From Escherichia coli (GTDB taxonomy: Bacteria; Pseudomonadota; Gammaproteobacteria; Enterobacterales; Enterobacteriaceae): a DNA stretch of 64,000 nt. This document shows positions 44,057 to 56,000 of this stretch, in pieces. A program made the position numbers. How positions within the stretch are numbered: position 1 is the first letter of the stretch; every line of letters begins with the position of its first letter. The DNA lies in NCBI RefSeq assembly GCF_045037415.1, contig NZ_CP173438.1. The stretch is one strand, 5' to 3'.

Positions 44057-47000
44057 TACAAATTGCGAAAATCCAATAGATTGCGACTCCCTTGTAGGCC
44101 TGATAAGCGTGGCGCATCAGGCACTTGCTCCCCGAACGTTGAATGAATTGTGGTTCTTATGTCCGAAACAAAAAACGAACTTGAAGACCTGCTGGAAAAA
44201 GCAGCAACCGAACCGGCGCACCGCCCGGCCTTTTTCCGTACTCTACTGGAATCCACCGTCTGGGTGCCTGGTACGGCGGCGCAGGGCGAGGCAGTAGTTG
44301 AAGATAGCGCGCTTGATTTACAGCACTGGGAAAAAGAAGACGGCACCAGCGTCATTCCTTTTTTTACCTCGTTAGAAGCACTTCAACAGGCGGTTGAAGA
44401 CGAACAGGCATTTGTCGTAATGCCCGTTCGCACATTGTTTGAGATGACCCTTGGCGAAACGCTCTTCCTTAATGCCAAACTGCCAACCGGTAAAGAGTTT
44501 ATGCCGCGTGAAATCAGTTTGTTGATTGGTGAAGAAGGGAATCCGCTGAGTAGCCAGGAAGTACTGGAAGGCGGTGAATCGCTGATATTATCGGAAGTCG
44601 CAGAGCCGCCAGCGCAAATGATTGATTCACTTACCACCTTATTTAAAACCATTAAGCCGGTGAAGCGTGCTTTTATTTGTTCAATTAAAGAGAACGAAGA
44701 GGCACAGCCTAATTTACTTATTGGCATTGAAGCCGATGGTGATATCGAAGAAATTATTCAGGTGGCGGGAAGTGTAGCGACCGATACATTACCTGGTGAT
44801 GAACCCATCGATATTTGTCAGGTGAAAAAAGGGGAAAAAGGAATTAGCCACTTTATTACCGAACATATTGCGCCATTCTATGAACGTCGCTGGGGTGGTT
44901 TTTTGCGTGACTTTAAACAGAACCGGATAATCTAAAATATGCCGCCCCAAAGGGCGGCATTCGGGCTTACTTGCTGCTCTGAAGGTTGTTAACCACCAGT
45001 AAATTGTCGCCGAAGAGACTTCGGTTATTATTTACCTCGGTTAACAGCGCACCAGAAACAATAAGTACGATACAAAAGCACCGTATCTTCATTGTGCGGT
45101 CCATGCGAAGACCGCATCACGACAGCACCACTGGCGATATTGCCGCGATAGCAAGCGCTGAGACGCGCTTGCCCTAACGGTCGCGGAACATCCTTTCCTT
45201 AAGCCAGCGCCCGCTTGCGAGACGGCGGAAAGGGCCGCAGTGGATAATACACTAACAGAACAATAATAACTCTCTTTTACTTGACAAAAAGAGAGTTACT
45301 GGCGAGTATTGTGTCCGCTGAGACGCGCTTGCATTACTACGGTAATACAACCTGCTGGAAAGGCCGCGAACCAGACCAGCAATAAAAAACCGCCAAATTC
45401 GGCGGTTTTTTATTGCCCGTAAAAAGCTTATTTTACGGGCTCAACCGGTAAATCTGCCCGTGCGCCCCATTCACTCCATGCGCCGTCGTACAGTTTCACG
45501 TTTGGCACATCCAACGTCGCAAGTGCCAACAAAACCACGGCTGCTGTTACACCAGAACCGCAGCTGACGATAATTGGTTTGTCATAGCTGACACCGCGAC
45601 CAAAAAATATCGCATCCAGTTCATCGGTCGTTTTTAGTTCGCCTTCACGTACCAGTTCCGTCCACGGAACGTTCAATGCACCGGGAATATGTCCGCGACG
45701 TAAACCTGGGCGAGGTTCATCAACTTCTGCGTTAAAACGTGTAGCCGGGCGGGCATCAATAATTTGCGCCGTATTTTCATGGCTTGCCAATAATACATCG
45801 GTTACTTTCACCACGGCTTCAGGATTAAACGCGGCGTTAAACTCTCCTTCCGGCAGCTCTACTGCGCCTTCTTCTAATAGCAGATCATCACGCAGCCAGC
45901 CTGCAAGTCCACCACCCAGAATCGACACTTTCTCTACACCAAAGGTGCGCAGCATCCACCATGCTCGTGGGGCTGAGAAAAGATTACCTTCGTCATAGAC
46001 AATCAGGTGCTTATCCTGGTTAACGCCTAATTCACGCATCGCCACGGCGAACGTTTCCGGGCGCGGCAGCATGTGCGGAAGCGGGGAAGTGTGATCAGAA
46101 AGCGCTTCGATATCAAAAAACACTGCGCCGGGAATATGTCCATTCAGATACTCCTGAGCAACGTTACGATCTTCCTGTCCAGGCGACGCCATGCGGGCAT
46201 CGATAATCTGAATTTCCGGGTCATCAATATGTTCGGCGAGCCAGTCGGCTCCTACAAACCATGTCGTGGACATAGGCATCTCCATTTTTGCCGGGGTTAG
46301 GCTAAATTGTCGGATGTTTAGTGAAAAGCGACAAGCAAAAGAGGCTGATTTGGCTGTCTGAGCCACAATTCTCACTAAAATTCGGATTGTATGGGCGTGA
46401 TACTGAATTACATAACGTAAATTCTCACGCATAATAATTATTCGACGTTGCTAACGGGCCATTGTGGCAGGGATGAAAAATGAAAAAGTTACGCGTAGCC
46501 GCCTGCATGCTAATGCTGGCGCTGGCAGGGTGCGACAACAACGATAACGCGCCAACAGCGGTGAAAAAAGATGCGCCTTCTGAAGTTACTAAAGCGGCCT
46601 CTTCAGAAAACGTGAGTTCAGCAAAACTTTCCGCGCCGGAGCGACAAAAACTGGCCCAACAGAGTGCCGGTAAGGCGCTGACATTGCTGGATCTCTCTGA
46701 AGTTCAACTCGATGGCGCAGCCACGCTGGTGCTGACGTTCTCCATCCCTCTCGACCCGGATCAGGATTTCTCACGCGTTATTCATGTCGTCGATAAAAAA
46801 AGCGGCAAAGTGGATGGTGCCTGGGAGCTGTCAGATAATCTTAAAGAGCTGCGTTTACGCCACCTCGAACCGAAACGTGATTTGATCGTCACTATTGGCA
46901 AGGAGGTCAAAGCGCTCAATAACGCAACCTTTAGTAAAGATGACGAAAAAACTATAACTACCCGCGATATCCAACCCAGCGTCGGTTTTGCCAGTCGTGG

Positions 47001-53000: not shown

Positions 53001-56000
53001 TGCCTGGGCGATTGGGGTTAACGCTCGCTATGTCATTGGGATCTGGACTGGCAGACCGGACGGCACGCCCGTTGTTGGTCAGTTTGGCTTTGCCAGTGCC
53101 GTACCGCTGTTGAATCAGGTTAATAATATCTTACTGTCGCGCAGTGTGAATTTGCCGGAAGACCCACGTCCTGACTCTGTAAGTCGTGGCGTTATCTGCT
53201 GGCCGGGCGGACAGTCTTTGCCGGAAGGTGACGGTAACTGTCGCCGCCGCCTGGCAACCTGGCTGCTGGACGGGAGCCAGCCGCCAACTCTATTACTGCC
53301 GGAGCAGGAAGGCATTAATGGCATTCGTTTCCCCATCTGGCTGGATGAAAACGGCAAACGTGTTGCCGCTGATTGCCCTCAGGCGCGACAAGAAATGATA
53401 AATGTCTGGCCGCTACCGCTGGAACCCTGGCTGCCCGCATCAGAACGTCGCGCTGTGCGCTTGCCTCCGGCCTCGACAATTTGCCCGCCATACGGTCACG
53501 ATGCACAACTCCCGCTGCAGCTAACAGGTGTGCGCGATGGCGCGATTATTAAACGTTTACCGGGCGCAGCGGAAGCGACTTTGCCGTTGCAATCAAGTGG
53601 AGGGGCAGGTGAACGCTGGTGGTTTCTGAACGGCGAACCGTTAACTGAACGTGGGCGCAACGTGACCCTGCATTTGACGGATAAAGGCGATTATCAATTG
53701 CTGGTGATGGATGACGTGGGGCAAATAGCGACAGTGAAATTTGTCATGCAATAGTCTGTTTTGTCCCTGATTGTTGCTTAAACTGGGTTTATTTTAAAAA
53801 AATGTTACCTTCATCAATAGTCAACGGCCCTGTTGCTCATTATAATCCGCGCCATCTCGTACGCTGGTACAGACAACAACAGAACAATTTACAGAGGTAA
53901 AAATGGCTATTGAACGTACTTTTTCCATCATCAAACCGAACGCAGTAGCAAAAAACGTGATTGGTAGTATCTTTGCGCGCTTTGAAGCTGCAGGGTTCAA
54001 AATTGTCGGCACCAAAATGCTGCACCTGACCGTTGAACAGGCTCGTGGCTTTTATGCTGAACACGATGGAAAACCGTTCTTTGATGGTCTGGTTGAATTC
54101 ATGACTTCTGGCCCGATCGTTGTTTCCGTGCTGGAAGGTGAAAATGCTGTTCAGCGTCACCGCGATCTGCTGGGCGCGACCAATCCGGCAAACGCACTGG
54201 CCGGTACTCTGCGTGCTGATTACGCTGACAGCCTGACCGAAAATGGTACCCACGGTTCTGATTCCGTCGAATCTGCCGCTCGCGAAATCGCTTATTTCTT
54301 CGGCGAAGGCGAAGTGTGCCCGCGCACCCGTTAATAATTTCGTAAATGCCGCGTGCAAACGTGGCATCCGTGCGCCAGAATTTGTACAATGCAGCGCCCC
54401 CGGACGAGCAGCCGCTCACCGGGGCGTTTCTTTTTTCAACCCTCCAGGGGCCATAACGTGTAATAACGAGGCCGGAATAGCATATGTCTGAACAATTAGT
54501 CACACCTGAAAACGTCACCACGAAAGATGGAAAAATCAACCTGCTGGATCTCAACCGTCAGCAGATGCGGGAGTTTTTTAAAGATTTAGGTGAAAAACCC
54601 TTCCGCGCCGATCAGGTGATGAAGTGGATGTATCACTATTGCTGCGACAACTTTGATGAGATGACCGACATCAATAAAGTGTTGCGCGGCAAACTGAAAG
54701 AGGTGGCGGAAATCCGTGCACCGGAAGTGGTTGAAGAACAGCGTTCATCTGACGGCACCATTAAATGGGCGATCGCCGTTGGCGATCAGCGCGTTGAAAC
54801 GGTGTATATCCCGGAAGACGACCGTGCCACGCTCTGCGTCTCTTCGCAGGTGGGGTGTGCGCTGGAGTGTAAATTCTGTTCCACCGCCCAGCAGGGCTTT
54901 AATCGCAACCTGCGGGTATCGGAAATTATCGGCCAGGTGTGGCGTGCGGCGAAAATTGTCGGCGCAGCAAAAGTCACCGGTCAGCGCCCAATCACTAACG
55001 TAGTGATGATGGGTATGGGCGAGCCGCTGCTCAACCTGAACAACGTCGTTCCGGCGATGGAAATCATGCTTGATGATTTCGGTTTTGGCCTGTCAAAACG
55101 TCGCGTCACGCTTTCCACTTCCGGTGTGGTTCCGGCGCTGGATAAACTCGGCGATATGATCGACGTTGCGCTGGCAATTTCCCTGCACGCGCCGAACGAC
55201 GAAATTCGTGACGAAATTGTGCCGATCAACAAAAAGTACAATATCGAAACGTTCCTTGCGGCGGTGCGCCGTTATCTGGAGAAATCCAACGCCAATCAGG
55301 GCCGAGTCACTATTGAATACGTGATGCTTGACCACGTTAACGACGGCACTGAACACGCGCACCAACTGGCAGAACTGCTGAAAGATACGCCGTGTAAGAT
55401 CAACCTGATCCCGTGGAACCCGTTCCCGGGCGCGCCGTATGGACGCAGTTCGAACAGCCGTATCGACCGTTTCTCAAAAGTGCTGATGAGCTACGGTTTC
55501 ACCACTATTGTGCGTAAAACTCGTGGTGATGACATTGATGCTGCCTGTGGTCAGTTGGCGGGCGATGTTATCGACCGTACGAAACGTACCCTGCGTAAAC
55601 GGATGCAGGGTGAAGCCATCGACATTAAAGCGGTCTGATAGCCATTACGCCACGGTTACTTTATGTACCGTGGCGTAATCTTTTATGAATGAAGTATTAA
55701 GTTGCAATTGTCTGGTCAATATTAACGGTGCGTTTTTGCTGACTTTAAGGCAGTATGTAACGATGCAACAGTAAGTTAGCCTTAGCGAATGTGGGCTTTG
55801 TCACGAGCACACAGACGGTCTTATACTGTATGATAACGGTTAACTTAACGGATGTTTCGCGGTGTGGGTGAGCATGATGGTTCACCGGCATCTCAATTCT
55901 CATTTAAACGTACCTGCAGCGAATGAATACTGAAGCCACGCACGACCAAAATGAAGCACTTACTACCGGCGCTCGCCTGCGTAATGCTCGCGAACAACTA

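Follow-up and report, generated by a model that had tools for sequence, protein, structure and literature searches.

The closest described relatives of the locus analyzed here are the alpha-2-macroglobulin (A2M) of Escherichia coli K-12, known as ECAM or YfhM (PDB 4RTD, 4ZIQ, and 5A42), and its Salmonella counterpart SaA2M (PDB 4U48). ECAM is described as a lipoprotein at the inner membrane, and the K-12 protein traps proteases covalently after bait cleavage. Class I bacterial A2Ms, which combine a lipobox with a CxEQ motif and are encoded directly upstream of pbpC, were reported by Budd et al. 2004, as described in later papers. Class II A2Ms (magABCDEF of Pseudomonas aeruginosa and the yfaS type of E. 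coli) are homologous to YfhM as MG-domain proteins and are likewise periplasmic, but they lack the lipobox Cys and CxEQ and belong to a six-gene operon without pbpC. The pbpC product, PBP1C, was reported as the third class A penicillin-binding protein of E. coli (Schiffer and Holtje 1999, as cited in later work). A possible periplasmic module in which YfhM traps the protease and PBP1C repairs the wall has been discussed since 2004, and the initial annotation cited this defense/repair pair accurately as a proposal from the literature. Because both the yfhM-pbpC linkage and the defense/repair idea date from 2004, the gene pair itself was already known. The A2M-pbpC literature that we searched mentions adjacency or an operon only and does not discuss the anatomy of the junction.

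In a 64-kb stretch of E. coli DNA (the window), yfhM occupies positions 46480..51441 on the + strand, an ATG-start open reading frame (ORF) whose translation is a 1,653-amino-acid, inner-membrane-anchored periplasmic A2M. A profile search found eleven A2M-type Pfam domains above cutoff and in the expected order (bMG1, A2M_bMG2, bMG3, MG2, bMG5, bMG6, A2M_BRD, A2M, TED, CUB_A2MG, and bMG10), and chain A of PDB 4RTD aligned end to end with residues 23 to 1653 (3,604 bits). The bait-region domain (PF07703 A2M_BRD, 60.2 bits, cutoff 22.7) spans residues 759 to 905 (48754..49194, + strand). The stretch encoding YPYGCLEQTA lies at 50026-50055, within which the CLEQ thioester motif (50038..50049, + strand) corresponds to residues 1187 to 1190, from Cys1187 to Gln1190. 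Y1183, P1184, Y1185, G1186, C1187, E1189, and Q1190 were invariant among 30 homologues of 32 to 57% identity. The C-terminal region also carries RDDR (residues 1594 to 1597) and an E-S-M-Y motif, both as defined in the ECAM literature. The N terminus, MKKLRVAACMLMLALAGCDNN, comprises a signal peptide (46480..46533, + strand) with the lipobox L15-A-G-C18 followed by Asp19, an inner-membrane retention signal (MKKLRVAACMLMLALAG-C18-D19). A lipobox pattern search chose an earlier VAAC, and LAGC is our own reading of the translation; LxGC is retained in the consensus of the 30 homologues. YfhM of the window thus shares with ECAM and SaA2M the 13-domain layout, CLEQ, the bait region, and the lipobox. 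It differs from K-12 ECAM by strain-level substitutions only, being a phylogroup-B2-like allele that is 100% identical to those of many clinical genomes. The protein is nearly identical by sequence to crystallized ECAM, and protease trapping by ECAM is known from the literature only; by that account, a protease cut in the bait would trigger a shape change, upon which the thioester would bond covalently to the protease.

The adjacent gene, pbpC (51442..53754, + strand), is an ATG-start ORF encoding a 770-amino-acid class A penicillin-binding protein 1C with the Pfam domains Transgly, Transpeptidase, and BiPBP_C. The protein passes the NCBIfam PBP1C equivalog NF008414 (1,562 bits, cutoff 1,121) and scores 912.7 bits against TIGR02073 PBP_1c (cutoff 494.2). 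Its glycosyltransferase 51 domain (PF00912, 176.8 bits, residues 61 to 226) contains the EDxxFxxHxG motif as EDRWFWKHPG, residues 84 to 93, with the catalytic Glu84 (51691..51720, + strand). The transpeptidase domain (PF00905) carries SxxK as S342-V-L-K (52465..52476, + strand), S396LN (SxN), and K511TG, and the PBP1C-specific BiPBP_C domain (PF06832, 63.9 bits, cutoff 26.8) covers residues 687 to 767 (53500..53742, + strand). PbpC of the window therefore shares with E. coli PBP1C every catalytic motif as well as its transglycosylase, transpeptidase, and BiPBP_C domains. Only the annotated ATG is conserved as a start, and in all relatives it yields a basic N terminus that is followed by a membrane helix. 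PBP1C is a peptidoglycan glycosyltransferase/transpeptidase whose N terminus forms a signal anchor. To our knowledge, it shows hardly any phenotype in the laboratory. The initial annotation had named both genes and described a 1,653-residue lipoprotein with a CLEQ thioester motif. The identities are supported by Pfam, PDB 4RTD, NF008414, and the RefSeq annotation of an identical genome, which has matching coordinates and names for both genes; the LAGC lipobox with Cys18 and YPYGCLEQ at residues 1183 to 1190 bear out the remainder. With lipobox, CxEQ, and pbpC immediately downstream, the window pair resembles the class I A2M-pbpC pair, and these features assign the A2M gene to class I.

The abutment of the two genes, also described initially, was confirmed by the ORF coordinates and by the sequence: 51436-51447 reads ccgTAAATGcct, in which the yfhM TAA (51439-51441) adjoins the pbpC ATG (51442-51444). 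This TAA-ATG junction (51439..51444, + strand) has a 0-nt spacer and no Shine-Dalgarno (SD) sequence upstream. The anti-SD duplex of pbpC, at +0.4 kcal/mol, is the second weakest in the window (rank 2 of 54 genes; yfhM, -6.0; ndk, -7.1; rlmN, -5.9 kcal/mol), and the predicted unpaired probability of its start region, 0.26 versus a median of 0.46, is the second lowest of the 54. Both UAA and AUG are enclosed by a predicted RNA stem, hairpin 1 (51394..51456, + strand), in which 3′ codons of yfhM (UGGCGGGCGA) pair with pbpC codons 1 to 5. Hairpin 1 by itself is predicted to fold at -31.8 kcal/mol, and a 120-nt fragment containing it gave z scores of -4.2 (window), -3.3 (K-12), and -3.7 (E. albertii). 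Among the relatives compared outside Escherichia, hairpin 1 was not conserved.

A second structure lies just inside pbpC. Hairpin 2 (51463..51492, + strand), a GC-rich stem-loop formed by codons 8 to 17 and followed by CCUUUUAUC, is located 22 to 51 nt past the yfhM stop and is a candidate attenuator or 3′-end element. At -15.6 kcal/mol it ranks in the top 0.26% of 30-nt windows across the 64 kb, and windows as strong as this lie mostly at gene ends. Across 58 distinct Enterobacteriaceae sequences, the median stability was -22 kcal/mol, 93.9% of cells were paired, and double (compensatory) changes occurred in 11 of 13 pairs. The covariation score was 0.484, compared with 0.174 for shuffled alignments (0/500 shuffles) and ≤0.185 when the structure was slid. 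The stem comprises 12 to 13 bp, and its compensatory changes alter amino acids on both arms. The N terminus of PbpC in the window, IMLTAAPFIIIL, shows a few substitutions relative to that of K-12, ITLAAAPFLLFL, and one of these leaves hairpin 2 with a C.A mismatch. Hairpin 2 is also predicted to fold in each of the 56 unique metagenomic junctions, at -16.7 to -34 kcal/mol. At 73 loci, the hairpin after the A2M stop was stronger than in-ORF control windows (median, -19.1 versus -14.1 kcal/mol; p = 1e-10). Hairpin 2 matched no Rfam family, and no earlier description was found in the literature searched.

This is the known chromosomal yfhM-pbpC locus of E. coli, for which we infer co-transcription, reinitiation, and attenuation at hairpin 2, an account that we consider very likely as a whole. 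The two genes would probably be transcribed together from a promoter upstream of yfhM. A candidate is the sigma-70-like match ATTACA-17-CATAAT (46407..46435, + strand), which lies 45 nt ahead of the yfhM start codon and agrees with 9 of 12 consensus positions; it is weak evidence because the regional total of such matches equals the shuffle expectation. Since pbpC has no SD sequence and its start codon directly follows the yfhM stop, its translation most likely relies on termination-reinitiation by ribosomes coming straight off yfhM. In Escherichia, hairpin 1 would hide the pbpC start until a ribosome on the 3′ end of yfhM melts it. Hairpin 2 would most likely act as a partial terminator or a 3′-stabilizing element of the yfhM message, and PBP1C would be made in smaller amounts than YfhM and only while yfhM is expressed. 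Translational coupling, as proposed in the initial annotation, is plausible from the sequence: the weak SD, the buried start, and the lack of a promoter match near the junction make it reasonable, but hairpin 2, which is probably an attenuator or 3′-end element keeping PBP1C below YfhM, points to an attenuated rather than an equalized partner. More speculatively, the junction in the Enterobacteriaceae may contain an undescribed structured RNA within coding sequence, in which hairpin 2 would serve as a translation-sensitive attenuator or 3′-end element that forms unless a ribosome reinitiates on pbpC right after yfhM. Such an element would keep PBP1C low and dependent on YfhM and would grade, not equalize, the two partners.

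A rather doubtful alternative, although the best placed of those considered, is that hairpin 2 works as an intrinsic terminator of high efficiency, leaving yfhM essentially monocistronic and pbpC dependent on rare read-through, with uncoupled amounts. In strength and in its position past the stop, hairpin 2 is like the hairpins usually seen at gene ends, a canonical A-tract/stem/U-tract is present in Klebsiella-like, Pluralibacter, Superficieibacter, and Enterobacter BIGb0383 sequences, and relatives with a spacer have terminator-like hairpins at the equivalent place. However, Escherichia, Citrobacter, and several others have a weak U-tract; in E. coli it reads CCUUUUAU / CCTTTTAT in the window and CCCUUUCU / CCCTTTCT in K-12. 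At least five U (T) residues fall within 8 nt past the stem in 27 of the 58 sequences, in a stretch that encodes a membrane helix and is U-rich anyway. Hairpin 2 is also part of a translated region, in which a trailing ribosome would keep it suppressed. Among the entries searched in two Term-seq supplements there was no yfhM/pbpC 3′ end, possibly because yfhM is too poorly expressed in the laboratory to register.

Less likely still, hairpin 2 could serve translation, either as a roadblock that detains the ribosome close to the SD-less AUG after termination and thereby favors reinitiation, or by slowing early elongation while the PBP1C signal anchor is targeted to the membrane. In all sequences with a 0- or 1-nt spacer, the stem starts uniformly at about +22 relative to the AUG, just beyond a ribosome sitting on that codon, and all of these pbpC genes lack an SD sequence. 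Against this role, Yersinia, Photorhabdus, and Budvicia have a strong hairpin in the spacer and none in pbpC codons 8 to 17. At loci with a spacer, then, the strong hairpin tracks the A2M stop and not the pbpC start, which we count toward the attenuator or 3′-end reading; the same pattern would be equally expected if the hairpin were needed only where pbpC has no SD of its own.

We regard it as improbable that the abutment is mere genome compaction, with no regulatory meaning in the junction and with pbpC expressed independently of yfhM translation, whether from a promoter inside that gene or through de novo initiation that needs no SD. Abutment alone is not unusual, as 6 of 35 same-strand neighbor pairs in the window overlap or are spaced by ≤2 nt. 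An RpoE-holoenzyme SELEX peak has been reported within yfhM, making an internal promoter possible, though no + strand sigma-E-like motif was found. Near the junction, neither a sigma-70-type consensus scan nor a sigma-E scan detected a promoter-like site on the + strand, the nearest sigma-70-type matches being those at 46407 and, inside pbpC, at 52324. The missing SD and the poorly accessible start of pbpC likewise speak against independent expression.

Conservation of the junction, which the initial annotation had suggested checking, was seen at 0 to 1 nt in the Enterobacteriaceae and gave way to spacers in Yersinia, Photorhabdus, and Pseudomonas. The locus is present in 5,425 of 5,426 complete genomes, the window is 100% identical to many E. 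coli genomes, and TAAATG is identical in K-12, O145, and Z142-2. The 0-nt TAA-ATG recurs in E. albertii, Citrobacter, Salmonella, and Raoultella and in 31 of the 56 unique metagenomic junctions, while close relatives with a 1-nt spacer have pbpC out of the yfhM frame. Junctions of 0 to 1 nt are limited to the Enterobacteriaceae and a few scattered lineages. Spacers measure 50 to 125 nt in Yersinia and Photorhabdus, and the gap of 435 to 911 nt in Pseudomonas holds a conserved opposite-strand gene. In other species, pbpC was on the same strand and no more than about 1.1 kb downstream of the A2M gene at 63 of 71 evaluable loci. Synteny thus persists while spacing ranges from overlap to >900 nt across lineages (start sites outside the Enterobacteriaceae were assigned heuristically), a range that favors compaction. 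Conversely, SD strength follows spacing across species, being weaker with tight junctions (median, +0.4 versus -3.3 kcal/mol when spaced; Mann-Whitney p = 8e-6), as expected if tight junctions replace the SD sequence. Since Pseudomonas and other lineages lack tight spacing, the partnership of A2M and PBP1C does not require coupling.

A YfhM-PBP1C fusion made by stop-codon read-through was rejected as exceedingly improbable: the frame difference of 0 follows trivially from the zero spacing, a 1-nt spacer puts pbpC in a different frame in close relatives, UAA terminates translation efficiently, and a PBP1C signal anchor placed after a periplasmic domain would presumably invert the topology.

Beyond Budd et al. 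2004 and the later ECAM papers, the details of the junction alone are new. They provide a concrete handle on whether YfhM and PBP1C cooperate and on the question of a PBP1C phenotype, since PBP1C in the Enterobacteriaceae apparently has no ribosome-binding site of its own and carries a covarying hairpin within its first 20 codons. If hairpin 2 limits PBP1C as we propose, mutating it could raise PBP1C from the native locus. The TAA-ATG of E. coli should not be taken as proof of obligatory stoichiometric co-production, as many lineages separate the genes yet keep synteny. In coupled gene pairs, ribosomes terminate and reinitiate at overlapping or abutting stop and start codons, and intercistronic hairpins attenuate distal genes of operons. 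The yfhM-pbpC junction resembles such pairs in its abutting UAA-AUG, its lack of an SD sequence, a start buried in structure formed with the upstream ORF, and a stable hairpin just past the stop. Unlike typical intercistronic hairpins, hairpin 2 lies within the downstream coding sequence rather than in a spacer, and its covariation changes amino acids on both arms.

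The yfhM open reading frame (46480 to 51441, + strand; 1653 amino acids) is followed directly by that of pbpC (51442 to 53754, + strand; 770 amino acids). The initial annotation described a lipoprotein of 1653 residues carrying the CLEQ thioester motif, with its stop codon abutting the pbpC ATG, and the sequence bears out both points. The boundary reads ...GTCAGACCG TAA ATG CCTCGC..., with TAAATG at 51439 to 51444. Translation gives a single CLEQ at residues 1187 to 1190 (nucleotides 50038 to 50049) and an N terminus, MKKLRVAACMLMLALAGCDNN, that contains the lipobox L-A-G-C, with Cys18 followed by Asp19. 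Abutment as such is common in the window: 6 of 35 same-strand neighbor pairs lie ≤2 nt apart or overlap (rnc-era, pdxJ-acpS, qseG-glrR, yphE-yphD, hscA-fdx, and yfhM-pbpC). At about 41,600 to 41,800, the window encodes an intact 616-amino-acid HscA, and the otherwise identical strain SK1144 (NZ_AP018784.2) has a 13-bp indel in hscA, which is annotated there as frameshifted.

Within E. coli, an 8.2-kb query spanning the locus was 100% identical to many complete chromosomes. Of 5426 complete genomes, 5425 have the locus, and the annotated order in matching genomes was sseA, yfhM (alpha2-macroglobulin), pbpC, and ndk. TAAATG and its flanks were identical in four divergent strains, and the 60-bp junction matched at ≥80% identity in all 5425 genomes with the locus. 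A truncated match (82% of the 60-bp query covered) occurred in only one of these, NCTC9100 (L002, NZ_LR134239.1, 3030 to 3207), where ndk and all of pbpC past codon 8 are missing through a natural or laboratory deletion, so that yfhM is followed directly by rlmN.

Across species, the spacing proved variable. A scan of GTDB species-representative genomes supplied a sample of 76 loci, of which 71 were evaluable; in 63 of these, pbpC lay on the same strand within ~1.1 kb downstream of the alpha-2-macroglobulin (A2M) gene. There is no spacer (0 nt) in Escherichia and Citrobacter, nor in Salmonella, C. koseri, and Raoultella. The spacer is a single nucleotide (TAAnATG or TAGnGTG) in several genera, among them Enterobacter, Pseudescherichia, Pluralibacter, and Superficieibacter; 50 to 125 nt in Yersinia, Photorhabdus, and Budvicia; and 435 to 911 nt in most Pseudomonas. 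Six loci lacked pbpC downstream: no pbpC was found in the 6 kb downstream of the A2M gene in L037, L045, L057, L058, and L074, and in L050, from a gammaproteobacterial metagenome-assembled genome (MAG), pbpC lies upstream. In two others it lies farther downstream, by 4.5 kb in Xanthomonas cucurbitae (L080) and by 2.5 kb in a Methyloversatilis MAG (L082). In an independent scan of metagenomes, a DNA pattern taken from the 3′ end of yfhM retrieved 56 unique junctions of the Enterobacteriaceae type, of which 31 have TAAATG, 20 have a 1-nt spacer, and 5 are of other types. The conserved trait is thus synteny and not the tight junction. The Shine-Dalgarno (SD)-less abutment is an Enterobacteriaceae feature with sporadic recurrences, for example, in a Desulfobacteraceae MAG and in Thalassolituus.

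The Pseudomonas spacers hold a gene of their own. In 18 of 19 A2M-pbpC gaps (loci L021 to L061; e.g., L022, 8199 to 8643), we found, at 56 to 72% identity, a conserved opposite-strand open reading frame for a predicted membrane protein of ~97 amino acids (MQADFFGWLGNTLG...), which matched no Pfam or NCBIfam family. This arrangement is incompatible with translational coupling in Pseudomonas.

Coupling of the two genes had been implied from the junction. The pbpC gene essentially lacks an SD sequence: the best anti-SD duplex in positions −20 to −3 is +0.4 kcal/mol, the second weakest among the 54 annotated genes of the window (yfhM, −6.0; ndk, −7.1; rlmN, −5.9). Among homologs, the SD is weaker in tight-junction species (median of +0.4 versus −3.3 kcal/mol in spaced species, whose starts were assigned heuristically; P = 8e-6). 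The annotated ATG is the sole start that fits the conserved N terminus of basic residues followed by a membrane helix; a start at Met13 was rejected, as that codon is ACG in K-12 and no SD precedes it. A 120-nt stretch spanning the junction has a predicted folding energy of −49.3 kcal/mol (z = −4.2 versus shuffled controls), and a predicted stem, hairpin 1 (51394 to 51456, + strand), pairs 3′ codons of yfhM with pbpC codons 1 to 5 and encloses the UAA-AUG. For the start region of pbpC, the unpaired probability is predicted at 0.26, the second lowest of the 54 genes, with only the timP start less accessible (0.14). The low value for timP (44954 to 45079, − strand) is consistent with the structurally repressed mRNA of a type I toxin. 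As a conserved feature, hairpin 1 was ruled out beyond Escherichia: z values in most other genera were −0.3 to −2.7, median start accessibility was 0.43 in 51 other pbpC homologs (window-gene median, 0.46), and the stem and start occlusion were significant in Escherichia only.

Other explanations were considered. A read-through fusion of YfhM and PBP1C was ruled out: relatives whose spacer is 1 nt do not keep the frame, and such a protein would have the wrong topology. An RpoE (sigma-E) holoenzyme SELEX peak (6.1-fold) is intragenic in yfhM at K-12 coordinate 2649866 (Shimada et al. 2017, PMC5493296) and suggested an internal sigma-E promoter for pbpC; this candidate was set aside when a scan with GGAACTT-N15-17-TCTGA/TCAAA gave no + strand match in 46100 to 53800 and two on the − strand, the chance expectation being 1.1 on each strand. 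The SELEX site inside yfhM leaves room for an internal promoter. On the + strand, a sigma-70-type consensus scan likewise gave no promoter-like match close to the junction. The absent SD, the buried start, and the lack of a nearby promoter match would all fit termination-reinitiation. Coupling of yfhM and pbpC is plausible and now has better support from sequence. The inference applies to Enterobacteriaceae alone and does not characterize the A2M-PBP1C partnership in general.

A second structure lies just inside pbpC. Hairpin 2 (51463 to 51492, + strand) is a predicted GC-rich stem-loop, CGCGGCUGCUGGAUAAUGCUGACAGCCGCG, with CCUUUUAUC following it, in pbpC codons 8 to 17, 22 to 51 nt past the yfhM stop. 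At −15.6 kcal/mol it belongs to the strongest 0.26% of 30-nt windows across the 64 kb, and the other equally strong windows lie mostly just past stop codons, the gene ends concerned including purL, glnB, glyA, iscA, iscX, pepB, ndk, rlmN, ispG, bamB, and der. Position 51484, in pbpC codon 15, gives ACA (Thr) in the window versus GCA (Ala) in K-12 and other alleles; the Thr allele introduces a C·A mismatch that weakens hairpin 2 to −16.7 kcal/mol versus −23.4 for metagenome alleles and about −21 for K-12. An Rfam scan returned nothing at the gathering threshold at the junction, with only chance-level matches at E ≤10. Elsewhere in the window, the scan placed above threshold rncO (418 to 632, +), ohsC (4044 to 4120, −), GlmY (13319 to 13466, +), the iscRS stability element (37569 to 37678, +), ryfA (44934 to 45238, −; overlapping the timP toxin gene), and sroE (58075 to 58166, +), all expected for this region of E. 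coli. A literature search for a yfhM terminator, with the founding papers on the gene pair outside its reach, returned unrelated papers and no description of hairpin 2, making it the one item here for which neither that search nor the Rfam scan yielded a description.

Hairpin 2 was present in every Enterobacteriaceae sequence examined, despite differing nucleotides and amino acids; the peptides encoded across it include RGCWIMLTAA, RSRWLWLAGA, and KRRWRWLAAF, among others. Alignments were anchored on the downstream WPLP codons and not on structure. With 16 sequences, 92.3% of alignment cells were paired, 6 of 13 pairs had changed on both sides, and the covariation score was 0.451 (shuffled, 0.168, with 0 of 500 shuffles reaching the observed score; slid, ≤0.165). 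With 22 sequences, the values were 90.5%, 7 of 13, and 0.423 (shuffled, 0.159, 0 of 500; slid, ≤0.193), and with 58 distinct sequences they were 93.9%, 11 of 13, and 0.484 (shuffled, 0.174, 0 of 500; slid, ≤0.185). The shuffles carry no phylogeny correction; on the 58-sequence set, two count-based measures that the software documents as rarely exceeded by chance, the 11 pairs changed on both sides and 31 additional pair types, were likewise reached in 0 of 500 shuffles each, and the slid controls fell far lower. Single pairs show up to 6 pair types (e.g., UA:17, GC:16, CG:15, UG:5, AU:2, GU:2). In three diverged relatives, Enterobacter sp. Ag1, Mangrovibacter, and an Enterobacteriaceae MAG (stem UGCGCCUGCG...UGCAGGCGCA), the corresponding position is occupied by a different hairpin.

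Beyond this family, the structure follows the upstream gene. When 73 loci covering all lineages were compared, the strongest hairpin within 130 nt past the A2M stop had a median of −19.1 kcal/mol versus −14.1 for controls, which were ten windows inside the same open reading frame per locus (Wilcoxon P = 1e-10), and it beat all ten controls in 43 loci. Yersinia, Photorhabdus, Budvicia, and an Enterobacterales MAG carry a strong hairpin in the spacer, 7 to 61 nt past the A2M stop, often of A-tract/U-tract terminator shape, and pbpC codons 8 to 17 of the spacer-bearing species have no comparable structure. The hairpin therefore tracks the A2M gene end and not the PBP1C N terminus.

We tentatively read hairpin 2 as a partial terminator or 3′-stabilizing hairpin of the yfhM mRNA, a possible rather than a probable role. 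A hairpin of the yfhM 3′ end would have come to lie within pbpC, where it would set PBP1C output below that of YfhM and make it dependent on YfhM. Several Enterobacteriaceae versions resemble canonical intrinsic terminators (e.g., the Klebsiella-type AAAACGCCGCUGGCGCUGGCUGGCGGCGUUUAUUUUU, and AAAAAAAUCCCGCUGGCGCUGGCCGGCGGGAUUUGUUGUUUU). The U-tract is poor in Escherichia versions, and only 27 of the 58 sequences have at least 5 U residues in the 8 nt past the stem; the supplementary data of two Term-seq papers contained no yfhM or pbpC entry. The main alternative is that hairpin 2 positions reinitiating ribosomes. Hairpin 2, within the first 20 codons of pbpC, offers a concrete experimental handle.

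The gene pair itself is well known, and its identification here, although correct, is therefore already known. In the literature, pbpC is "often juxtaposed" to bacterial A2Ms of class I, which have a lipobox and CxEQ, and the idea of a defense/repair pair, accurately restated in the initial annotation, goes back to Budd et al. 2004, cited in later papers for the proposal that the A2M traps invading proteases and PBP1C repairs the wall. Thioester-based trapping by ECAM, the E. coli A2M encoded by yfhM, has published biochemical and structural demonstration; for PBP1C, no clear function has yet emerged in the laboratory. The partnership was still presented as speculation in papers of 2018 to 2020, and our search of papers from 2019 to 2026 found nothing that establishes it, so the interpretation first attached to the locus restates known ideas. 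Pfam recognizes glycosyltransferase, transpeptidase, and BiPBP_C domains in the window PbpC, which also carries the motifs EDRWFWKHPG, S342VLK, S396LN, and K511TG and scores 1562 bits against the NCBI equivalog cutoff of 1121 for PbpC. In YfhM, the set of bacterial A2M domains is complete (bMG1, A2M_bMG2, bMG3, MG2, bMG5, bMG6, bait region, A2M, TED, CUB, and bMG10). YPYGC-EQ, the RDDR region, and a C-terminal M-Y pair, which the ECAM structure papers tie to thioester protection and activation, are invariant in YfhM and 29 homologs (32 to 57% identity), and the window YfhM aligns end to end with both crystallized ECAM (4RTD, 4ZIQ, and 5A42) and Salmonella SaA2M (4U48).
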